From Dehalococcoidia bacterium (GTDB lineage Bacteria; Chloroflexota; Dehalococcoidia; Lucifugimonadales; UBA3495): a DNA stretch of 64,000 nucleotides. The notes beneath the pieces were generated by a model. That model ran no database searches. It saw only the letters and a program-made list of their open reading frames with translations, and was not told the DNA's origin. This document shows positions 1 through 40,671 of the stretch, piece by piece. Each line of letters begins with the position of its first letter. Within the stretch, counting starts at the first letter, position 1. The stretch spans positions 73,814-137,813 of the forward strand of contig JAKUNL010000001.1 of the NCBI GenBank assembly GCA_022451925.1, in the 5' to 3' direction. The position numbers were made by a program, and so were the translations under genes.

Positions 1-299
1 TCGCCAACTTTGAGCAACGGACGTCGCACTAGTTTAGGTTCCTGCAGCATCAGATTAACCATCGCATCATCAGATAGCTCTTTATCTGCTAGACCCATTT
101 TCTTCAAACTGGGACTCCGACGAGCAAATATATTCTCCGTGCCCACCATGGTGGCTAGGGTACGAATCTCATTGTCAGTAAATGTCTCTTGGAAGAAATC
201 TCTTTCAGTTACTTCCAATCCGTTCTGCAAGAGTAACTCTCTCGCTTTACGGCAGGTTGATCAACGAGGCCACCAATAAAATTCAACGGTCTGGCTCAA
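1..299 (-). CDS. ArsC/Spx-family thiol oxidoreductase, selenocysteine (UxxC) candidate; C-terminus cut by the window edge
   Basis: Not a single ORF in the track. The minus frame reads M(TTG 297..299)SQTVEFYWWPR-[TGA 261..263]-STCRKARELLQNGLEVTERDFFQETFTDNEIRTLATMVGTENIFARRSPSLKKMGLADKELSDDAMVNLMLQEPKLVRRPLLKVG. There is no other stop down to position 1. GGAGG lies 5 nt upstream of the TTG, and an in-frame ATG at 312..314 is the alternative start. The TGA aligns with the first Cys of the N-terminal CxxC(R/K)KA motif of ArsC/Spx/YffB proteins. Confidence 0.6.
207..238 (-). promoter_or_regulatory. Stem-loop downstream of the in-frame UGA (SECIS candidate)
   Basis: Perfect 7-bp stem AGUUACU / AGUAACU (232..238 pairs with 207..213) with an 18-nt loop, starting 22 nt after the TGA at 261..263. 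Confidence 0.35.
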
Positions 300-399
300 C
301 TTGGCCTCCAACATGGCTGTAGTTTATTGAAATATTTCATCTAATTCCAGGACCGCCGGTTCATCTTATACCCGAAATAGTCTTATGAAAAGTGCAGTT

Positions 400-3139: not shown

Positions 3140-3913
3140 CTACGGAGCCCAGAAGCGCTCTTCAGCAAAATTCCATCCTTTGGACGGCAATTTTGCTTTC
3201 ACGTCTTCAATCATACCCGGGTGACCGCAAGCGTAAACCTTAGTGTCATCCTTGGGAAGATTAAATCTGGAAAGGTACTCCTCTACAATGTTGTTAACTC
3301 GACCGGTAACACCCTTCCATTCAGAATTTTGGGATTCGCTGGGCCGGCTTATAGTGGGAACGAATTTAACAATACTTGGGTGTCTCTCTGCCAACTCATT
3401 AAGTTCCAAATCATAAGTGAACTCGTCAACGTAGCTAGCGCCGTACATGACGTAAAAGACGTGTTCTTCTTGATTTACTCCATTTTTCAAGTCATGTAGG
3501 TATTGCCTAACCATGCTGATGGAAGGAGCAACACCGGTCACAGTGGAAATCATGAAGTGGTGATGAGCCTTGTTGTCTCGAACAAATAATCCCTTGGCTC
3601 GGGGTCGGATAGACATACTGTCACCGATTTTCAAGGCAAACATCTTGGGAGTCAGCTCGCCGTCGGGCACCAATTCCACAAAGATCTCGAGGTATTTCTC
3701 ATAGGGAGCTGATGCGATAGAGTAGGCCCGTTCAATATTGCCAAGTCCAAGCGTGCAATACTGTCCGGGTTTGAAGTCAAATTTTTTGGAAATCTCCAAC
3801 TTGATAACCATCAAGTCTTCGCAAGACTGTCGGCGTTCCACCAATGTCGCCAAGGGAAATTCAGGGTTGGGTGATAAATCTGGAGCGCCAGACTCCGCGG
3901 ATGCCTCTACCAT
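3140..3913 (-). CDS. Ferredoxin-NADP(+) reductase-like FAD/NAD(P)-binding oxidoreductase
   Basis: RAYSIAS (RxYS FAD motif), GVAPSISM (GTGxAP-like) and YACGHPGMIEDV (CGPxxM-like). Start moved to the ATG at 3913 (GGAG-N5-ATG). The track GTG at 3946 has no SD. Confidence 0.8.
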   Translation of the reverse strand: MVEASAESGAPDLSPNPEFPLATLVERRQSCEDLMVIKLEISKKFDFKPGQYCTLGLGNIERAYSIASAPYEKYLEIFVELVPDGELTPKMFALKIGDSMSIRPRAKGLFVRDNKAHHHFMISTVTGVAPSISMVRQYLHDLKNGVNQEEHVFYVMYGASYVDEFTYDLELNELAERHPSIVKFVPTISRPSESQNSEWKGVTGRVNNIVEEYLSRFNLPKDDTKVYACGHPGMIEDVKAKLPSKGWNFAEERFWAP

Positions 3914-3963
3914 ACGTACTCCTCGGCGGCTTTGTTTACTAGTCACTGATTATTGAGAATTGA

Positions 3964-6786
3964 CTAATCGACCTTATTAACCCGAGCTCTACGGATATCT
4001 AGTCCTGGGACTTTGGTTGCAGGTTCCATTTCCTCGGAACTCTGCAGGTCCACAGCCAACTGACCAAAAAGCGAAGTTGAAGCAACGACACCTACCGGAA
4101 CTGCTTCATTGATGCGAGCCATACCGGAAAGTCGTCCAATGGGCATTTCCACCACCACCTTGCCACCGTCTTCTATAGACATCGCAAAGGCGTCGGTCGG
4201 ATTCAGTTCGACAAATTCATCCCGTTGTATGGTGTTGGCGCGGCCTTTGACGATTTTGATATCCCGTTCTTGCTGTAAGAGAACACGGCCCGGAACGAAC
4301 CAAAGCGGGAAATCAGTGTCAAAGCCACCTTCAACCTCGGCAAAATCTGGGGTGATAGGTTCTGCCTTACGGGATTTAAACCCGTCTTCAAAAAGAATCG
4401 GAGTGCCGAACCCGTCTTTATCCACTGGCCACTGGAGTCCTCGATCTTCTCTACTGGCGTAGAGCATCTGGGTCGGCTGCGGACTCTTCAAGTCCGTCTT
4501 GAAGACCAATCCACCTTGGTTGGCCAGGGTCCGATATGAGACGTTAGTATATATCGGCGCCACGCGAGCTATTTCATCCATTATTTCAGAAGATGAACTC
4601 AGTAAAAATCCTGGAGCTCCCATCTTGCGAGCTACCTCACAGATTACCCGTCCCTCTGACCTGGCGCCTTCCTCAAGGAGTTCACGACCGGGTGTCAGGC
4701 GTTGTATCCGACGTTCCAAGTTTGTGAAGGTCCCATCTTTTTCGGCAAAAGTAGCTCTAGGCAGAACCACATCAGCTCGTTGGGCGGTAGCGCTTAAAAA
4801 AGTATCGCAGACAACTAAGAATTCAAGGTTGTCCAATGCAGCCAGTCCGTCACCCAATTTTCCGTTACTAAAATTCGCACTGTCTCCGATTAAAAACAGT
4901 GACTTCACCTCACCCGCTGCTGCCGCTTCCACAATCTTGGCAAGACCCAAACCAGGCATCTCGGGTATTGATGTATCCCACAGAAGCTCAAGGGCCTCGC
5001 GATCTTCCATATTGGAGACTCGGCGGTATCCAGGCAAGCGATCAGGAACACAACCGACGTCTGATGCCCCTTGTTCATTAGCCCCAGGCCGCATCGGATA
5101 GATTCCTGCGCCTGGTTTACCTAAATTCCCAGTGACCAAAACAAGGTTTACCAAGGACAGGACGCAATCTCTAGACTGCGATTGTTGGATATTATCTAGG
5201 GCATAGACTAGGGCGCTGGCCCCAGCTTCACCGTATAGCCTTGCAGCAAGCATGATATCGGATATGCTCACCTGGGTCACCCGGGATATATACCCTAGGT
5301 CCAAGGAGGAGAGTGTGTATATTAGTGTGGCCGGGCTTTCACAATTCTCAGTCAGCCAATCGCCTTCCTGGAATCCTTGTTCAACCACCGACTTTAACAA
5401 CCCTCCCAACAATAGCAGTTCGGTACCAGGCGTCGGCCTCAGCCAAACGTGGGCGTAGCGAGTCAGCTCAACCTCCCTAGAATCTATGACTACAAGCTTG
5501 GTACTCTTCCGTGCTGCCCGCTTGATGGGCACTCCTACCACGTTGTGCTCTTCTGTGACATTGCTGTTGAAGACCAAGATGCAGTCCGCCTGCTCCAGAT
5601 CCCAGATGGGGTTGGTTGACCCGGCGTAACCCAGAGATTGTTCTAACGCCAGTGTCAGTCCTGGTTGAGTGTTAGAAGTCTGGTCTACGTTGTTGGACTT
5701 CATCGCAGTCCTAGTGAATTTCTGCGCTAAATAGTGTTCCTCATTGGTGCTATTGGGTGAAGTTAAAAATGCAAATGATTCACCTGAGTAATCAGCGAGT
5801 TTGGTAGCAACCACATCCAAGGCTTCATTCCAGCTGACTTCAACCAGATGACCGTCCCGGCGAACCAAGGGTGTCTGAATCCGCGTTTTGTCATTGACGA
5901 ACTGAAGGCCAAATTTCCCTTTGAAACAAGCCTGTCCGTGGTTAGCCGGAGAATTCAATTCCGGTACGGCTCGAATCAAGATACCGTCTCCGTCGTATTC
6001 CACGTTCATCTGGCAGCCCACCGGGCAGAGAGGGCAAATAGTCCGTTCAACCTTCCGAGGTTTGTCCCATTTATGGTCTCTCTCCACTAATGCACCTACG
6101 GGGCAAACATCGATGCAAGCACCGCAAAACTCGCAACCAGATTCCAATAAAGAAGTGCCAAAAGACGTTCCTACTAGAGTTTGTCCACTTCGCTCCACCA
6201 ACCCTATAGCGTCGTCGCCTCTTAGTTCTTCACAGGCACGAACACAACGAGCGCAGACGATGCAGAGGTTATAGTCGCGATCATAAAACGGGTCGGCAAC
6301 TTCCAGTGGAATTTGCCGATATTTGTAGTTCAGCGGAGATTCCAGATTCATACCCAGATAACGCACGGTATCTTTGAGCTCACAGCGTTCGTTCTTGGGA
6401 CAAGTGACACAGCGGTCATTTACTGACACGTGACGCAGGCAGATGTCGGTAGGTCCGCAAATATCTACGCGATGGCAGGTGAGGCAACCGTTAGGGTGCT
6501 CAGCAATGAGCATCTCCATTACCGACTTCCTAAGGTCGTTGACCTCACCCGATTCGGTCTGGACCTTCATACCATCGGCGGCGGGTAGGGTGCAGGAGGC
6601 GGGAAATCCTCGTTGGCCTTCAACGCTGACAACACACATGCGACAAGCGCCATATGACTTCATGCCAGGGTGGTAACATAGATATGGAACGTAGATTCCA
6701 GCGTCGATAGCCGCTTCTAGGACCATCTTGCCTTGAGTGGTTTTGACCTCTTGGCCATCAAATGTGATTGTGATTTCGTCAGCCAT
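3964..6786 (-). CDS. NuoG / formate-dehydrogenase-alpha-like Fe-S molybdopterin-fold subunit (catalytic Cys/Sec absent)
   Basis: 940 aa with an N-terminal 2Fe-2S motif (CYHP..CRMC), HPNGCLTCHRVDIC (His-ligated 4Fe-4S), CIVCARCVRAC and CEFCGACIDVCP ferredoxin motifs, and CPLCPVGC at the start of the MopB domain. The segment NNVDQTSNTQPG replaces the NNVDxCARV(C/U)H active-site segment. Confidence 0.85.
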   Translation of the reverse strand: MADEITITFDGQEVKTTQGKMVLEAAIDAGIYVPYLCYHPGMKSYGACRMCVVSVEGQRGFPASCTLPAADGMKVQTESGEVNDLRKSVMEMLIAEHPNGCLTCHRVDICGPTDICLRHVSVNDRCVTCPKNERCELKDTVRYLGMNLESPLNYKYRQIPLEVADPFYDRDYNLCIVCARCVRACEELRGDDAIGLVERSGQTLVGTSFGTSLLESGCEFCGACIDVCPVGALVERDHKWDKPRKVERTICPLCPVGCQMNVEYDGDGILIRAVPELNSPANHGQACFKGKFGLQFVNDKTRIQTPLVRRDGHLVEVSWNEALDVVATKLADYSGESFAFLTSPNSTNEEHYLAQKFTRTAMKSNNVDQTSNTQPGLTLALEQSLGYAGSTNPIWDLEQADCILVFNSNVTEEHNVVGVPIKRAARKSTKLVVIDSREVELTRYAHVWLRPTPGTELLLLGGLLKSVVEQGFQEGDWLTENCESPATLIYTLSSLDLGYISRVTQVSISDIMLAARLYGEAGASALVYALDNIQQSQSRDCVLSLVNLVLVTGNLGKPGAGIYPMRPGANEQGASDVGCVPDRLPGYRRVSNMEDREALELLWDTSIPEMPGLGLAKIVEAAAAGEVKSLFLIGDSANFSNGKLGDGLAALDNLEFLVVCDTFLSATAQRADVVLPRATFAEKDGTFTNLERRIQRLTPGRELLEEGARSEGRVICEVARKMGAPGFLLSSSSEIMDEIARVAPIYTNVSYRTLANQGGLVFKTDLKSPQPTQMLYASREDRGLQWPVDKDGFGTPILFEDGFKSRKAEPITPDFAEVEGGFDTDFPLWFVPGRVLLQQERDIKIVKGRANTIQRDEFVELNPTDAFAMSIEDGGKVVVEMPIGRLSGMARINEAVPVGVVASTSLFGQLAVDLQSSEEMEPATKVPGLDIRRARVNKVD

Positions 6787-6850
6787 TCGGCAGCCTCAAT
6801 GTCTCATCAACGCCGGAGTCGTTCCTGAGATCGTAGAAATTCAGATTTGG

Positions 6851-8578
6851 TTAGCGGCGGGAGGCCGCTGGGGAGTATCTAGAGTCTAAACAGGTACCGG
6901 TAGGACAGGAATGATCGTTGATGTGGGTATCGAATTCAGGCCCAAAATATCTAAGGGCAGAAGATACAGGGTTGAAACCCAATTGACCGTGCCCGCACAG
7001 GGACCCGGCCTGCATATTCACTCCAATATTCTGCATCAAAGCCAAGTCTTCCGGTGTGCCTTCCAATCGACAAAGACGCTCCAAAACCTCTAGAAGATGG
7101 CTCATACCCATCCGGCAGGGAAAGCACTTGCCGCAAGACTCGTACTGGCAGAAAGCAATGAGAGATCGTGTCAGGTCAACGATACAGGTGCTATCGTCAG
7201 CTGCTATCAATCCTCCTGACCCAACAATGGCGCCAGCGGCGCGCAATACTTCAAAATCCAGAAGCACGTCTATGTTGTCTGCTCCAAGCACGCCTCCCAA
7301 CGGGCCTCCCGTCTGGAGGAATTTAAGCACTTTGCCGTCTTTCATCCCCCCTGCGACGTCGTAGATCACATCCTTCAGGTTCATTCCTAACGGCACTTCA
7401 ATCATGCCTGTATATTTCAGGTTACCTGAAAGGCAGAGAATGACAGTGCCAGTACTTGTATCGTGGCCGATATTAGAGAACCACTCTCCTCCCTTGGATA
7501 CGATCTCTGGAACGTAGGATAGAGTTTTTACGTTGTTGATGTTAGTAGGTTTACCAAACAGTCCGAATTGCGCGGGAAATGGAGGTCGGAACCTCGGCAT
7601 TGACCGCTTGCCTTCGATTGCTTCCATCAACGCTGACTCTTCACCAGCCACGTAAGAATCCCCGGTGAGTGCAATCTCAATTTCGTAGCTGAAATCCGAC
7701 CCCATGATATTCTCGCCTAGAAAACCCAACTCGCGGGCTTGATTTATAGCGGCGCGGCACCGTTCGATAGGACCGTCGTGGCCATGACGAATAAAAATAT
7801 ATCCCTTATTGGCTCCAGTTGCGTAACCTGCGATGATCACCCCTTCTACTAGGGTATTGGGATCACTCTCCAAAATATTCTTATCGTTGAATGCGCCTGG
7901 GTCGCCCTCCTCACAGTTGCAGAGTACGTATTTGTCTGCAGCAGCGTTTCCAGCTAAAAAGCTCCATTTGGTAGCGGTTGGGAAAGCAGCCCCCCCGCGG
8001 CCTCTTAGTCCTGAAGCCTTGACCTCTTCCAAGGTTTCTTCACGATTGAGCTCAGTCAAAGATTTATATAAAGCCTGATAGCCACCGTTGGCGATGTACT
8101 GGTAAATGTCTAGCGGGTCTATGTTACCAGCGTTCCTAAGGGCAATGCGGTTCTCACGGGCTTTCATGGAATGTTGTTTGAGGTCTGGTATCCCCTCTGG
8201 GGGCGGCGCTAGACTGGTCTCTTCGGCAAGGTAGCCTAAGGCTTTCGAGACGATTGGAGTACCACCGGCAACATGAACCGATACGATTTCACTCACACTT
8301 TCGGCATCAACATTGCCATAGAACACACGATGCCCGCCTGGAAGCTGCACATCCAGAAGCGGTTCGGCGAAGCATAGACCCAAGCAACCAACCCGGCTAA
8401 CCTCAGCAGATACACTCTGATCAGCTAGGGCCATCTCCAAAGCGTCTGCCACCTCAAATGCCCCTGCAGCCTCACCACATAGAGCAGTCCCAATACGGAT
8501 CCAAGGCCGTTGACCTGCGGTTAGCTCCTGCCAGCGACTGTCGGCTTCCAGTCCAATTTCTACGAAGCTAAGGACCAT
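6851..8578 (-). CDS. NuoF/HoxF-like NAD(H)-binding FMN, 4Fe-4S subunit with N-terminal thioredoxin-like 2Fe-2S domain
   Basis: 575 aa with GRGGAAFPTATKW (NADH/FMN site) and ESCGKCFPCRMG (N3 cluster). It overlaps the upstream gene by 11 nt. Confidence 0.9.
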   Translation of the reverse strand: MVLSFVEIGLEADSRWQELTAGQRPWIRIGTALCGEAAGAFEVADALEMALADQSVSAEVSRVGCLGLCFAEPLLDVQLPGGHRVFYGNVDAESVSEIVSVHVAGGTPIVSKALGYLAEETSLAPPPEGIPDLKQHSMKARENRIALRNAGNIDPLDIYQYIANGGYQALYKSLTELNREETLEEVKASGLRGRGGAAFPTATKWSFLAGNAAADKYVLCNCEEGDPGAFNDKNILESDPNTLVEGVIIAGYATGANKGYIFIRHGHDGPIERCRAAINQARELGFLGENIMGSDFSYEIEIALTGDSYVAGEESALMEAIEGKRSMPRFRPPFPAQFGLFGKPTNINNVKTLSYVPEIVSKGGEWFSNIGHDTSTGTVILCLSGNLKYTGMIEVPLGMNLKDVIYDVAGGMKDGKVLKFLQTGGPLGGVLGADNIDVLLDFEVLRAAGAIVGSGGLIAADDSTCIVDLTRSLIAFCQYESCGKCFPCRMGMSHLLEVLERLCRLEGTPEDLALMQNIGVNMQAGSLCGHGQLGFNPVSSALRYFGPEFDTHINDHSCPTGTCLDSRYSPAASRR

Positions 8579-9047
8579 GACCGTCGCGTTCCAGCAGCCG
8601 GGATACGTTCTCTGCGGCAGACTCAGGGTTGACCCGGCCGGCCAAATGATGGTCCAAAGCCATCACAGGAGCCTGAGAGCAAGCTCCAAGGCAGGAGTTG
8701 AATTTCACCGTCAATCTCTTGTCCAAAGTGTCGCCTTCACTATCGAGACCTGCAACTTCTAGCACCGATTTAAAGATACTCATAGCGCCCACTAAGTGGC
8801 AGGACGCCCCCCAACAAACGTCAACTGTATGTTCTGCCGGAGGTTCGAAGCGAAAATTCGGGTAGAAAGACGCAACAGCCCAGACATCATTTATAGTGGC
8901 ATTGGAAAATCCAGCCACGAATTCGACAGCCTCTTTAGGGATGTACCCCAATTCATCTTCCACAGCAAGCAGAGATGAAAGCACCGTGACGGTCGGTTGA
9001 GTTTGACCGCGAACCGCATCCTGTATCCGTTGTTCTAGCCCACTCAT
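8568..9047 (-). CDS. NuoE-like 2Fe-2S subunit
   Basis: 159 aa with CWGASC ... CLGAC cysteine pattern. AGGAG lies 8 nt upstream of the ATG. Confidence 0.9.
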   Translation of the reverse strand: MSGLEQRIQDAVRGQTQPTVTVLSSLLAVEDELGYIPKEAVEFVAGFSNATINDVWAVASFYPNFRFEPPAEHTVDVCWGASCHLVGAMSIFKSVLEVAGLDSEGDTLDKRLTVKFNSCLGACSQAPVMALDHHLAGRVNPESAAENVSRLLERDGHGP

Positions 9048-9405
9048 GGTTTGGGCTCCTGATCGATTGGACTTGGGAAGGTTTCTAGTGAACCTATAAT
9101 CACACTTGCTTTACAGGCTCCCAAAATGCGTATAGATAGTTCGTGAAATCAGTAACAATCGTTACCAAAATCGTACCACACGCCTGCTAGTGATTCAACA
9201 AGAGTTGGTGTCACAGATTTTTGATTGCAATAGTTCTAGAAACAATTTCATAGGTTGATATGTTGCTATACACCTCACCGTCTCAACCCTGAGTTCCTTT
9301 CCAAGACCGTCGTGACTACCATCAAGCAATTCATCCCACGATTTGAACAGACTTGCTTAATAAAGCTTTGGATAGTAAACAACCGAATTATTAAAAGTAA
9401 CTAAA

Positions 9406-9452
9406 AATGGGGCGAGAGAATCCCGCCCCATTTTTAGTTACTCTCGGTTACC
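9406..9452 (-). terminator. Rho-independent (bidirectional) terminator, perfect 19-bp inverted repeat
   Basis: agtaactaaaaatggggcg-(9 nt loop)-cgccccatttttagttact. GC core flanked by A/T runs, 12 nt downstream of the stop at 9464. Confidence 0.7.
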
Positions 9453-9463
9453 AATGTGGTTGT

Positions 9464-10033
9464 TTAATCAGATTTAGCTGCAGAGCTCCCAACTAGGATA
9501 CGTTCAACTTCGGGGAACAGGGCCTCGGCCCGCTCCTGACACTGTTCGTCGGTCAGGCTAGAAAGGGGGTGTTCAGCCACAATGTACTCGAAGTCGGGCA
9601 CACCCATCATACGGGTCATAGCTTTGGCCGTGTTGTTAAATACGTGGGTGATAATCGACGCAGTGGGCAGGCCCAGGCGTTCCATCTCTATTCCATCGTG
9701 CACACTGCACGAACTGCAGGAACCTCAATCCCCTATCCCGGTAATCAGAATGTCCACTTCATTAAGCATGTTCTGAACCACGTCCGGCTTGGTGGGAAGC
9801 GACGCCGAGTGTTTGTTGTAATAAACAATATCTTTCAGGTCATACTTATCATTTAGCATCTGGCCTAAAATGTGTAGAACTTTATCCGAATTGGCCTTGG
9901 AGTTTTCCAGTAGACCGAGTGTCTTGCCCGATAATGTATCGGGGCGCTCATTCAACCTAAAATCGCCGGACGATAACGAAGTTCCGGTAGGGTTAACCAA
10001 TCTCATGTTTCTAACTTCTACGGTCTCAGCCAT
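9464..10033 (-). CDS. UGSC-motif (seleno)protein candidate; needs UGA 9725..9727 decoded as Sec
   Basis: Track ORFs 9725..10033 and 9464..9703 are in the same frame, separated only by TGA plus 7 codons. The joined product is ...NEVDILITGIGD-U-GSCSSCSVHDGIEMERLG... (189 aa). GGAGG-N4-ATG precedes 10033. The distal piece has no ATG or SD of its own. Confidence 0.65.
9705..9719 (-). promoter_or_regulatory. Short stem-loop just 3' of the in-frame UGA (possible SECIS core)
   Basis: CUGCA-GUUCG-UGCAG begins 5 nt after the UGA. The alternative pairing is GUGCA-GUG-UGCAC. The stem is short, so SECIS competence is unproven. Confidence 0.3.
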
Positions 10034-10190
10034 GATTCCTCCCAGACTTTTTCCTAAACATTAACTAGCATGGATAAGGATTGGGTTCCTGTAATAATAC
10101 ACCAGATGATGCATTATACAAGGTTCCAAAGCCGTTATTTATAACTAAGTGATTTGTTCTCACGTCCAATGCGTAGTTTTAGGTTTGCGA

Positions 10191-11225
10191 TTACGTCCCA
10201 ATCTTGCGGGTCCTAATTTTATAGCGAGTAGTGTCAATGATGGCGCTGTTTCGCCCACCTGTACCTCCACCCATCAAAACCAGGATGTCCTCAGGATCTT
10301 GGGCGCAACGGCGGATAATCTTATCATCGCCGTCCCGTTCCGGCCCCTGAGCTATGCCTAGGCGAATCAGCTCGCTCTGCGGGCGGGCGGCATTCTCCAT
10401 CATGTATTCCTGAATGTCTTTACGAGTCCAGCCATCCTCGTTCAGAGTGATGGCATGTTCTGGGCCAATGACTAGAACCCACTGGGAAGGATACCTAAAT
10501 GCCATAGAAGCCGACTTTAGAGTGTCAGCAATAGCCATCAGCACTGATTCACCAGTGTGCCCGTAAGCTGCGTTGACGTTGACTGGATTATAGGCCACGG
10601 CCACTGTTACGGTGCTATCATCCTCGTTGAAGCCGCGAGCAACGTGCATTGGCTCCCAAGGCGAGTCCTCTTCATTTTCAGCAAAACAAAGAGTGTATTT
10701 CGCTGGATTACCGAGCGTACCTCGGTCCAGGGTTCCAGGTCGAGCGTCGAAGCCGTTCATGAAACAAAGCCTGATAGCGCGACCTAGAACGGCATTAGCC
10801 CGGTTACCTGGTCCAAGGAGTCCGTCTTTGTAGTTAGCGTTAATCTGATCTCTAATCGGCCCGTTCAACACCATAAGAATCGCTGGTGAACTCGTTGAAG
10901 CCGAAGCCATATGAACGAAGTTCTTCTCCTCCTCAAGGGCTTTAAGCGTGGTGGTCAAAACAGGGAAATAATCGGGCAGACAACCGGCCATAACGGCGTT
11001 GGCAGCCACGTTCTCTGAGGTAAGCACTCGGTTACGCATCTCTAAGGAGATGATCTCTTCTTCGCCAGTCATGCCACTGGATTCCAGCATTTCCCGGACT
11101 TTATAATCCACTGGCGGGACAACGGGCAGACCATCACTCCAGCCCATCCGGTAGCATTCTTCAATAGCTTCAATTGTGTCACTCGACTCCACTATTTTGG
11201 AGCGTTCCATATCATTGGTAGTCAT
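10191..11225 (-). CDS. Conserved hypothetical protein (family not recognised)
   Basis: About 344-aa ORF with coding-like composition (GWSDGLPVVPP, GPGNRANAVLGRAIRL). Start moved to the ATG at 11225 (AGAGGG-N6-ATG). Confidence 0.6.
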   Translation of the reverse strand: MTTNDMERSKIVESSDTIEAIEECYRMGWSDGLPVVPPVDYKVREMLESSGMTGEEEIISLEMRNRVLTSENVAANAVMAGCLPDYFPVLTTTLKALEEEKNFVHMASASTSSPAILMVLNGPIRDQINANYKDGLLGPGNRANAVLGRAIRLCFMNGFDARPGTLDRGTLGNPAKYTLCFAENEEDSPWEPMHVARGFNEDDSTVTVAVAYNPVNVNAAYGHTGESVLMAIADTLKSASMAFRYPSQWVLVIGPEHAITLNEDGWTRKDIQEYMMENAARPQSELIRLGIAQGPERDGDDKIIRRCAQDPEDILVLMGGGTGGRNSAIIDTTRYKIRTRKIGT

Positions 11226-11325
11226 CCGTAACCCTCTCAATTAAAGGTCCCCTATAAAATTCCGATGCAAGGCCTTTGAACACATGTATGTCATAGATCC
11301 CGAGATCATTGAGACAATTATTTGT

Positions 11326-12219
11326 CTAGTTATGTAAACGGAGTTGGATACCTGATTTTTCTTCCTGAATCTTGGCTACAGCGTCTGAGTCCTCTGGTCC
11401 ATAACCCCTAAAAAGCGCCTCAACATGCCGTTGGTCTACCAAGTTAGACAATTCCATTGGGATACCGTACTCCCGCCCCAAGTCGGTGGCCAGCCTGACA
11501 TCTTTTGCAGCCAATGCAGTAGCAAAGCCCGGCTCGAAATTACCCTGGAACAAAAACAAAGGAAACTTATCCTTGAGTCGTTTGGATCCGCCAGTACTAT
11601 TATTGATGACATCCGCCAAGGTATCCAAGTCTACACCGGCCTTGACCCCCAGTGTGAGGGCTTCCGCCAACAGAACTCCGGTGCCCATGCTCATTAGGTT
11701 ATTACAAATCTTACAAACGGATCCATTACCAATGTCTCCGCAATAGACCACGTGGGTGCCGATGGCCTCGAGGGTTGGCTTGAATCTATCAAAAGTTGGC
11801 TTGTCGCCACCAACCATTACCGCCAGCGTCCCCGCCGAAGCGCCGTAGGTTCCTCCGCTGACCGGAGAATCAAGCAAGGTCACGCCTCTGGCAGCACATT
11901 CTTCATGAAGCCGCCGAATCATGGTCGGAGAGTTTGTAGAAAGGTCAAATAAGACCTGCCCTTCACTTGCTCCTTCCAGGATTCCGTTTTCTCCCAACAC
12001 CACTGCTTCCACGTCTCTGGGTACTGGAAGTGACGTTAGAACCACTTCGTTGCCCGGGACGGCCGCCTTTGGGCTGTCCGCCCAGTTTGCGCCCATCTCT
12101 AGAAGGTTGGTGGCGGCCTCCCGTCGAAGGTCGTGAACGGTTAGTTGATGACCTGCTTTGATCAGATTGGCGGCCATTGGATTCCCCATGTTGCCGGTCC
12201 CGATGAAACCTATTTTCAT
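11326..12219 (-). CDS. NAD(P)-dependent 3-hydroxyisobutyrate/6-phosphogluconate dehydrogenase-family oxidoreductase
   Basis: MKIGFIGTGNMG Rossmann start with AGGAGAG SD upstream. 297 aa with typical beta-hydroxyacid dehydrogenase layout. Confidence 0.85.
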   Translation of the reverse strand: MKIGFIGTGNMGNPMAANLIKAGHQLTVHDLRREAATNLLEMGANWADSPKAAVPGNEVVLTSLPVPRDVEAVVLGENGILEGASEGQVLFDLSTNSPTMIRRLHEECAARGVTLLDSPVSGGTYGASAGTLAVMVGGDKPTFDRFKPTLEAIGTHVVYCGDIGNGSVCKICNNLMSMGTGVLLAEALTLGVKAGVDLDTLADVINNSTGGSKRLKDKFPLFLFQGNFEPGFATALAAKDVRLATDLGREYGIPMELSNLVDQRHVEALFRGYGPEDSDAVAKIQEEKSGIQLRLHN

Positions 12220-12871
12220 CGCGCTCTCTCCTATTCATATCGGATGGACGCTGATACGGCCGTTCGGCCGTCATTGGTGGTTGTTCTGTTGGTTTATACC
12301 GTGGCAGGTGACCATAATTGGCCGCGGTCTCTTCTAGTTCGGGTTGGGGAGACGGTACACTCCCGTACGCTGGATCATCGTCTTTATACCGTACGGCGTT
12401 GTCTGCCTCTCGCCGTACGATTCGCCGCGCTTCGGCATCCTCCGGAGTTAATCCGTCTAGAGCTTCATCAAAGGCCTCTTTCGCCATTCTGAATGCATTT
12501 ACAGCTGCTGGCATACCACCGTAGAAGACCATTTGGGCAATTATTTCTGAAATCTCGTCTCTAGAAACGCCTATGTGTAATGCGCCAGAGATGTGGCGTT
12601 TGATCATTTGAGGGCTGTGGCCAAGGACTACGAGGGCCGCAATCGTGCAAAGACTCCGTGTTCTTAAGTCCACCGCAGGTCTGTTGTAAATCTCGCCATA
12701 GATCACCGCGTCCACCAAACGCATAACTTCTGGCGCAAGTTCTGCCATAGCGGCCGGCGGCGCTGGATTATTATCTGGACCGTAATACGCCTGCCTAAAA
12801 TCAAGCGCCGCCTGATTTAGGTCTTTAACACCCTCTTGTGGATCTCCTTCTGGATGATTTTCAGAGCTCAA
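11963..12871 (-). CDS. Carboxymuconolactone decarboxylase (CMD/AhpD-like) family protein with long low-complexity tail; 3' boundary doubtful
   Basis: CMD-like core (VIYGEIYNRPAVDLRTRSLCTIAALVVLGHSPQMIKRHISGALHIGVSRDEISEIIAQM). AGGAG-N5-TTG at 12871. The ORF only stops at 11963, 257 nt inside the next gene in another frame. Confidence 0.6.
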   Translation of the reverse strand: MSSENHPEGDPQEGVKDLNQAALDFRQAYYGPDNNPAPPAAMAELAPEVMRLVDAVIYGEIYNRPAVDLRTRSLCTIAALVVLGHSPQMIKRHISGALHIGVSRDEISEIIAQMVFYGGMPAAVNAFRMAKEAFDEALDGLTPEDAEARRIVRREADNAVRYKDDDPAYGSVPSPQPELEETAANYGHLPRYKPTEQPPMTAERPYQRPSDMNRRERDENRFHRDRQHGESNGRQSDQSRSSTNRSRPSTGGRHQPSRDGRKLGGQPKGGRPGQRSGSNVTSSTQRRGSSGVGRKRNPGRSK

Positions 12872-12901
12872 GGTTTCTCCTGAAAGACATGAGATCACTC
12901 A

Positions 12902-40005: not shown

Positions 40006-40368
40006 TTGGACTTAGTCGATCAACAACTACAAAACAGCAAGACCATCGCCGTGGTTGGCTTGTCTGGGGATCCGGATCGAATCAGTTTCCGAGTTTCCCG
40101 CTACATGCAGGAACAAGGTTACCGCATCATTCCGGTCAACCCGATGATTGACGAGGCGTTGGGCGAAAAAAGCTACCCCGACCTCAAATCGGTCCCAGAG
40201 GCCATTGATATGGTTAACATTTTCCGAAGATCTGAGTTGGTAGGTCCGGTGGTAGAACAGGCTATAGAGGTCGGTGCCAAATACATATGGATGCAAGACG
40301 GTGTGATTGACGAAGACGGGGCCGCCAAGGCGGAGGCCGCAGGAATACCAGTCATCATGGACGATTGA
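40006..40368 (+). CDS. CoA-binding domain protein (YccU-like)
   Basis: 120 aa with IAVVGLSGDPDRISFRV...GYRIIPVNP. Confidence 0.8.
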   Translation: MDLVDQQLQNSKTIAVVGLSGDPDRISFRVSRYMQEQGYRIIPVNPMIDEALGEKSYPDLKSVPEAIDMVNIFRRSELVGPVVEQAIEVGAKYIWMQDGVIDEDGAAKAEAAGIPVIMDD

Positions 40369-40384
40369 ACTCTACGACAGCATC

Positions 40385-40401
40385 GCCGCCGGTTCGGCGG
40401 C
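40385..40401 (+). terminator. GC hairpin after the CoA-binding gene (no U tract)
   Basis: gccgccg-gtt-cggcggc, 17 nt after the stop codon. Confidence 0.3.
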
Positions 40402-40671
40402 TAACGATCTGCACCTAGCGAACGCTAGCTTAATAGAATTACAATTAGACAACCTAGTCTCGAAGTATCTTATTACGCCGTACATAACCTTATTAATGTA
40501 ATATTTGAATACTGCTGTAATAGTATCCGGATTCGCTACCACATAATGGTCTAGGTCCGACTCTAATCAGGATTCCTAAGAAAGTTGCCAATTGACAAAT
40601 TTCAGTGATGGCAGAAAAGATCTGGATTACTTTCGCTCACTCAACGTCGACTCTTAGCAGGTATTATTAAA

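Follow-up and report, generated by a model that had tools for sequence, protein, structure and literature searches.

An in-frame UGA as the predicted selenocysteine codon of a UGSC-family gene in the marine SAR202/Dehalococcoidia lineage

In a stretch of 64,000 nucleotides from a Dehalococcoidia bacterium, hereafter the window, the minus-strand region 10033..9464 is in all likelihood a single gene of the marine SAR202/Dehalococcoidia (Chloroflexota) lineage that encodes a 189-residue UGSC selenoprotein, in which an internal UGA would be decoded as selenocysteine (Sec) and whose product would serve as a redox subunit. The in-frame UGA itself is almost certainly a selenocysteine codon. The structure of the gene, its family, the Cys/Sec column, the conservation of the TGA, of a hairpin behind it and of the downstream frame, and the pairing with a neighboring gene are established here. 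Proteins with the UGSC motif were among the most abundant selenoprotein families in the Global Ocean Sampling survey (GOS), with 255 Sec forms against 21 Cys forms, and were described there as a UxxC class of unknown function, "likely" thioredoxin-like and sometimes fused to "Unknown_1" (PMC2398784). Under the model NF041046 the family is still listed as uncharacterized in a 2026 review (PMC13188914). The earlier sequence-only reading of this DNA had given U-G-S-C as the name-giving motif of a marine (seleno)protein family, in agreement with both of these papers. Since the family has already been described, the gene found here adds one more case to it.

The features on which the argument rests are the following, all on the minus strand:

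9464..10033, minus strand: complete UGSC-family gene, predicted to encode a selenoprotein; 189 codons (102 + Sec + 86) and a TAA
10038..10043, minus strand: Shine-Dalgarno sequence GGGAGG, 4 nt 5' of the ATG at 10033..10031, read from the sequence
9725..9727, minus strand: UGA codon 103, predicted selenocysteine and first residue of U-G-S-C; a Cys column in homologs
9716..9718, minus strand: TGC for Cys106, the putative resolving Cys of the UxxC motif, in a column at least 90% conserved
9696..9712, minus strand: predicted SECIS, UCGUGCA-GUG-UGCACGA; 17 nt invariant among Sec forms
9705..9719, minus strand: hairpin CUGCA-GUUCG-UGCAG proposed in the sequence-only reading; variable 5' arm
9397..9441, minus strand: strong intrinsic terminator, 20 pairs and a T run, starting 23 nt past the TAA
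10191..11240, minus strand: partner gene, directly upstream of the UGSC gene; the two are adjacent in 74/85 loci

A 102-codon open reading frame (10033..9725) closes with the TGA at 9727..9725 (...ATA GGG GAT TGA), and past it the same frame runs on for 86 codons, beginning GGT TCC TGC AGT TCG TGC AGT GTG CAC GAT GGA, to a TAA at 9466..9464. Sequence and translation thus confirm that two called ORFs lie in one frame, parted by the UGA and giving 189 aa in total, as had been proposed. The joined product reads ...ILITGIGD-U-GSCSSCSVHDGIEMERLGLP..., with GIGD-U-GSCSSCSVHDG across the UGA in mid-protein. The strong Shine-Dalgarno sequence described earlier is likewise present: the start region 10043..10031 is GGGAGG-AATC-ATG, that is, GGGAGG (10043..10038) followed by 4 nt and the ATG. 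The second listed ORF (9703..9464, 79 aa) begins with a GTG 7 codons past the TGA, in the same frame as had been stated; the accompanying remark that it has no ATG of its own does not strictly hold, as an in-frame ATG is found at 9685..9683 within this fragment and serves public gene callers as the start of a 73-aa second fragment. The terminator at 9441..9397 is placed 3' of the TAA, so that it is the second "ORF", and not the TGA, behind which the transcription unit closes.

To place the product in a family, we scored the joined sequence with U written as C. The NCBIfam model NF041046, "UGSC family (seleno)protein", matched residues 36-180 with 142.4 bits against a curated cutoff of 125 (E = 1e-41), and Pfam PF24696, "UGSC", matched residues 12-181 with 185.9 bits against a cutoff of 25 (E = 8.8e-55), covering profile positions 2-171 of 172. 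Both matches cross the TGA, and hence neither fragment is a complete domain. These full-length matches above the curated cutoffs bear out the suggested family membership, and by its profile matches the product of 10033..9464 is a typical member of the already known, curated UGSC family; it has the same motif column, a length near the ~185 aa of the family and the same marine setting as the members from the Sargasso Sea and GOS surveys, and nothing essential differs.

A search of 5.8 billion clustered proteins returned full-length homologs of about 175-195 aa that are roughly 40% identical to the joined product. All 119 of the 119 Cys-type homologs have Cys at the UGA column; 107 of them read GDCGSCS, with G101, D102, G104 and S105 invariant, and the present gene reads GD-U-GSC, so that the [U/C]-G-S-C motif after G-D is present. 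The nearest relatives (57-88% identical) are either N-terminal pieces of about 103 aa or C-terminal pieces: P0008, P0009, P0011 and P0019 stop exactly at G[IV]GD, before the UGA column, and P0014, P0015 and P0023 begin at MERLG. That homologs carry Cys or Sec at this position, as had been anticipated, is therefore seen in the Cys forms directly and in the nearest relatives as a break exactly there. One relative, P0006, is full-length with W at the UGA column; its underlying codon is TGA, and the deposited protein is not reproduced from its DNA under code 11, in that W stands for TGA. The prediction that gene callers would split the gene is also correct. Public deposits carry the fragments as "hypothetical protein" (e.g., GIS93875.1, MCH2670706.1), with a separate 73-aa fragment, and reading the two as one selenoprotein would correct a misannotation, 102-aa plus 73-aa "hypothetical proteins", that recurs in hundreds of public SAR202 contigs. 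Cys-type homologs also occur in cultivable genera such as Microbacterium and Citricoccus. Our scan of the genome_contigs set used a back-translated pattern that included Cys; it recovered only Cys forms, which we used for gene context. The TGA-type UGSC pattern, GGNGAYTGAGGNWSNTGYWSN(15N)GAYGG, had no match in viral_contigs.

The TGA is not a sequencing error, since 355 blocks of the assembly collection contain exactly this 102-aa fragment. We then compared orthologous DNA from five further lineages (L118, L120, L123, L119 and L121/L122; six distinct sequences). The TGA is kept in all of them, at protein identities down to 39% (L121/L122), and in all five lineages the frame past the TGA is open to a stop 79-86 codons on. 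Over the first 75 codons past the TGA, the four closest orthologs differ from the window by 29 synonymous and 15 nonsynonymous changes (L118), 25 and 16 (L120), 30 and 15 (L123), and 25 and 25 (L119). Synonymous changes thus equal or outnumber nonsynonymous ones, which argues that the region 3' of the TGA is translated. Judged by this pattern of substitution, purifying selection acts in divergent orthologs on a coding frame 3' of the TGA. The coding conservation expected there is accordingly found, in the frame and TGA kept at five divergent loci and in the substitution counts of the four closest.

Among the six Sec-type sequences, the codons just past the UGA drift synonymously (GGT/GGG/GGA/GGC, TCC/TCT/AGC, TGC/TGT, AGT/AGC/TCA), and so do codons farther 3' (GAT/GAC, GGA/GGT/GGC, ATA/ATC). 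Between them lies a 17-nt block, TCGTGCAGTGTGCACGA (9712..9696; +16..+32 counted from the U of UGA), that is invariant in all six distinct sequences from the five lineages. Five codons within the block, each with 2-6 synonymous alternatives, are constant, whereas 7/7 flanking codons vary synonymously. Folding of the block yields a hairpin with a perfect stem of 7 bp, UCGUGCA-GUG-UGCACGA, at about -9 kcal/mol; its loop is GUG at +23..+25 and its spacer from the UGA is 12 nt. Its peptide, SSCSVHDG, lies within the UGA-spanning peptide GIGD-U-GSCSSCSVHDGIEMER and is found in 6/6 Sec forms against 0/119 Cys forms, in which these positions are variable. The SECIS of E. coli requires a spacer of about 11 nt after the UGA, plus a stem, to which the 12 nt found here are close, and the G and U at +23/+24 of our hairpin stand where the loop of the fdhF SECIS of E. 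coli is contacted by SelB. Like that element, the UGSC hairpin is a stem-loop some 11-12 nt past the UGA with loop G/U at +23/+24, and it lies within coding sequence and constrains the encoded peptide. It differs from the fdhF SECIS in its short, perfect 7-bp stem, 3-nt loop and lack of a bulged U; no sequence similarity between the two was demonstrated, and no Rfam model matched.

From its conservation and position, the hairpin at 9712..9696 is probably the SECIS. The helix is without covariation, because the hairpin never varies and so offers no compensatory pairs; what speaks for it is conservation rather than compensatory change. With its roughly -9 kcal/mol it does not surpass the same region of GC-rich Cys forms in stability, the folding of 76 nt around the UGA gave a stability not above that of shuffled sequence (z = 0.56), and Rfam, searched both at gathering thresholds and with E-values relaxed to 10, had no relevant family.

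Scanning the window for in-frame TGAs, we found two further genes with a TGA on a conserved Cys:

1..314, minus strand: ArsC/Spx-family gene, ATG at 314, TGA at 263..261; runs off the left end of the window
40006..40404, plus strand: CoA_binding_2 gene (PF13380, YccU/PH1109-like), TTG at 40006, TGA at 40366..40368, at the C-terminal Cys, and TAA at 40402..40404

The ArsC/Spx-family gene, of which a full copy is present in L001 (19716..20090), encodes ...FYWWPR-U-STCRKA..., with the TGA at the N-terminal catalytic Cys and a PF03960 match from profile position 1; its match to NF041106, "ArsC family (seleno)protein", is weak (34 bits) and does not reach the cutoff of 85. Past the UGA there is a hairpin, GCGAGAG-AGUUA-CUCUUGC, at about 245..227, and gene callers give the gene as a 96-aa fragment. 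The CoA_binding_2 product reads ...GIPVIMDD-U-TLRQHRRRFGG. In PDB entries 2duw, 2d59, 3q9u and 1iuk the residue opposite U is the Cys of VVMDRC, the longer pattern in 2d59, 1iuk and 2duw being VVMDRC.MxEHxRLxG, and MMREHERLLG and LMVEHKRLFRG are the stretches that align with the 11-residue tail TLRQHRRRFGG. Here the UGA is followed by the hairpin GCCGCCG-GUU-CGGCGGC at 40385..40401. Among the best 150 homolog clusters of this protein, the UGA column is occupied by Cys in at least 105, and six clusters (P0296, P0301, P0337, P0393, P0397 and P0408) stop exactly before it. In both additional genes the stem-loop has GU in the apical loop at +27/+28. The CoA_binding_2 family was not found in the text of the 2026 selenoprotein review (PMC13188914), so it may be an unlisted selenoprotein family. 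With three UGA-at-Cys genes in 64 kb, a Sec-decoding genome is the economical reading, and in the SAR202 lineage, which is abundant in the deep ocean, three or more genes of these 64 kb probably make use of selenocysteine. The EF-Tu of the window and the UGSC fragment fall in protein clusters that bear the names SAR202 cluster, Dehalococcoidia or Chloroflexota MAGs. Our literature search found no paper tying SAR202 to selenoproteins.

The fragments of 102 and 73 aa given by public callers, and the ATG in frame at 9685..9683, are what one would see if the TGA were a true stop, be it in a pseudogene, through a recent nonsense mutation or an assembly error, or between two small genes. We regard this as extremely improbable, given that the TGA recurs in 355 independent blocks of the assembly collection and in five lineages with protein identity down to 39%, that the downstream frame is under purifying selection, that neither half is a complete domain and one Pfam model covers both, and that the terminator lies 3' of the TAA. 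The Sec machinery was not found within the 64-kb window, where the only tRNAs are tRNA-Tyr and tRNA-Thr, with no tRNA-Sec, and where selA, selB and selD were not found among the large ORFs; this would suit a true stop and would equally suit a UGA that is read through as something other than Sec, namely as Trp, Cys or Gly by near-cognate decoding or under a reassigned code. Such a non-Sec read-through, with which the W of database entry P0006 would also agree, is very improbable in its turn. TGA terminates 14 of the 43 long reading frames in the window and is thus an ordinary stop there, so that the code is not reassigned; moreover, the three in-frame UGAs align with conserved Cys columns, which is a signature of Sec and not of Trp or Gly, behind each of the three stands a hairpin whose loop has GU at +23 to +28, and UGSC is already an established selenoprotein family (PMC2398784).

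A different question is whether Sec is inserted by way of the hairpin CUGCA-GUUCG-UGCAG (9719..9705) that the sequence-only reading had pointed out directly behind the UGA. This hairpin does exist, in the window as well as in L118, L119 and L120, and in L123 a C-to-U change leaves a wobble pair. It and the hairpin at 9712..9696 overlap, having in common the 3' arm of 9719..9705, and so both cannot form. The 5' arm of 9719..9705 lies in the synonymously drifting codons, and in L121/L122 (UUGCU) it loses one pair and another becomes a wobble; on these grounds we assigned the SECIS to 9712..9696. In addition, the loop of 9719..9705 would start just 10 nt past the UGA, nearer than the spacer of about 11 nt plus stem of E. 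coli, and the invariant stretch +16..+32 fits the downstream hairpin exactly and includes just the 3' arm of the upstream one. As a SECIS, the hairpin first proposed is therefore unlikely, and the data favor the one 7 nt further downstream.

With the UGA taken as a selenocysteine codon and 9712..9696 as its SECIS, a decoding scheme can be drawn from the standard bacterial pathway. The ribosome would meet the UGA at codon 103, the hairpin (GUG loop, 12 nt past the UGA) would recruit SelB-GTP-Sec-tRNA(Sec), and selenocysteine would be inserted there in place of termination. Following Sec, 86 more codons would be translated up to the TAA, behind which lies the strong terminator.

For the fold of the product, we modeled P0035, a Cys form 44% identical to it, with AlphaFold2 and a 75-sequence alignment. 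The model (pLDDT 90, pTM 0.84) has five strand-helix units in repeating order, with the CxxC where strand 3 ends and helix 3 makes its first turn, and its best PDB fold matches are flavodoxin-like (WrbA, MsuE, flavodoxins), albeit weak (TM 0.35-0.50). The UGSC fold is thus predicted to be flavodoxin-like alpha/beta and not thioredoxin-like, different from the thioredoxin-like fold guessed in the GOS paper (PMC2398784). The strand-helix order of the AlphaFold2 model (pLDDT 90) is not that of a thioredoxin fold. In the predicted structure U103-G-S-C106, where strand 3 ends and helix 3 has its N-terminus, is predicted to be the redox-active center, and the U103/C106 pair would be expected to cycle between selenol/thiol and selenenylsulfide (disulfide in Cys forms).

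The partner gene (10191..11240) encodes a protein of 344 aa if the ATG at 11225 is the start, and of 349 aa with the TTG at 11240. Throughout the 74/85 loci where it adjoins the UGSC gene the two are on the same strand, typically 10-90 nt apart and in both gene orders, and such pairs span Chloroflexota, Actinomycetota and Burkholderiales. The partner gave no Pfam or NCBIfam match, even at E = 5, no PDB sequence match, and no fold match with a model of moderate confidence (pLDDT 73). It has 7447 homologs, every one of them named "hypothetical", and across phyla it keeps W-x-DGLPvvP, an invariant Cys87 (A-G-C motif) and an invariant His262 (P-E-H-A). In one SAR202 relative (L118), the partner and UGSC genes are parted by an inserted ParE toxin/antitoxin pair at 7349..7862.

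A third component emerged from targeted tblastn censuses of the loci, from which all our neighbor counts are taken. This is a protein of 86-88 aa with an A-C-x-D-C motif, encoded next to the UGSC/partner pair in 48/91 loci and homologous (E = 9e-9) to the NifU-like C-terminal extension of UGSC proteins of 257-277 aa. Examples are:

L126, 8552..8809: NifU-like third component
L127, 9705..9968: NifU-like third component
P0024, C-terminal part (L128, 8541..8813): the same component fused to UGSC

The locus censuses found neither the NifU-like gene nor thioredoxin genes in SAR202 loci. Thioredoxin or thioredoxin reductase genes lie near UGSC in 5-6 loci, and one Arthrobacter plasmid has the gene order TrxB-Trx-partner-UGSC::NifU. 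IclR regulators are commoner as neighbors (36 loci), as are NMT1-type binding proteins (24) and acyl-CoA ligases (21). In the window, the UGSC pair lies upstream of a minus-strand cluster (3140..9047) that encodes NuoE-like and NuoF-like proteins, the latter extended at its N-terminus by a 2Fe-2S part, together with a formate-dehydrogenase/NuoG-like molybdopterin protein (940 aa, scoring under the cutoff of the FdhA equivalog) and an FNR-like reductase; this arrangement is syntenic in four SAR202-type loci, those of the window, L118, L120 and L123, and not in L119, and the terminator separates the UGSC unit from the cluster.

Gene neighborhood and predicted fold together lead us, with moderate confidence, to see in UGSC the small, redox-active subunit of an enzyme of two or three parts, whose substrate would be a small organic compound. 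UGSC would most likely be the small redox subunit that forms a physical complex with the ~345-aa partner, to which, in many Cys-type lineages, the NifU-like CxDC protein of ~87 aa would be added as a further part, as a protein of its own or as a fusion with UGSC. Thioredoxin-type or NAD(P)H-linked donors would supply the electrons.

There is a likeness, in logic only, to GrdB/PrdB (UxxC, PF07355), in that a gene for a UxxC selenoprotein stands beside one for a larger, non-seleno partner, and some UGSC genomes place Trx, TrxB and a small CxxC/CxxU carrier-like protein nearby. The UGSC contexts differ, as these are aerobic operons of catabolic appearance that hold genes for IclR regulators, ABC binding proteins and acyl-CoA ligases. 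UGSC has no sequence or fold match to GRDB (PF07355), as the Pfam scan gave PF24696 only and the PDB profile search nothing related, and no relation of the UGSC partner to GrdE or PrdA was detected. A tentative and rather doubtful extension of our reading is that UGSC is not a free-standing thioredoxin-like antioxidant at all, and would instead be the selenol/thiol subunit of a widespread multi-component enzyme of catabolic operons (with the partner and often a NifU-like carrier), comparable to glycine/proline reductase, of which the SAR202 version would use Sec and have lost the carrier.

The function of UGSC has been open since 2005-2008 despite its abundance in the sea. The ~345-aa partner, the NifU-like third component and the flavodoxin-like model are added here, and they offer handles on this function for co-expression, pull-down and substrate screens.

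Lastly, we note an ORF with a carboxymuconolactone-decarboxylase domain (CMD, PF02627) at 11963..12898 on the minus strand, which continues into a long Arg/Ser/Gly-rich tail; this tail overlaps the next gene, at 11326..12219, by 257 nt. This region has no public gene call in L001, and a 211-aa CMD protein is called there in L123.
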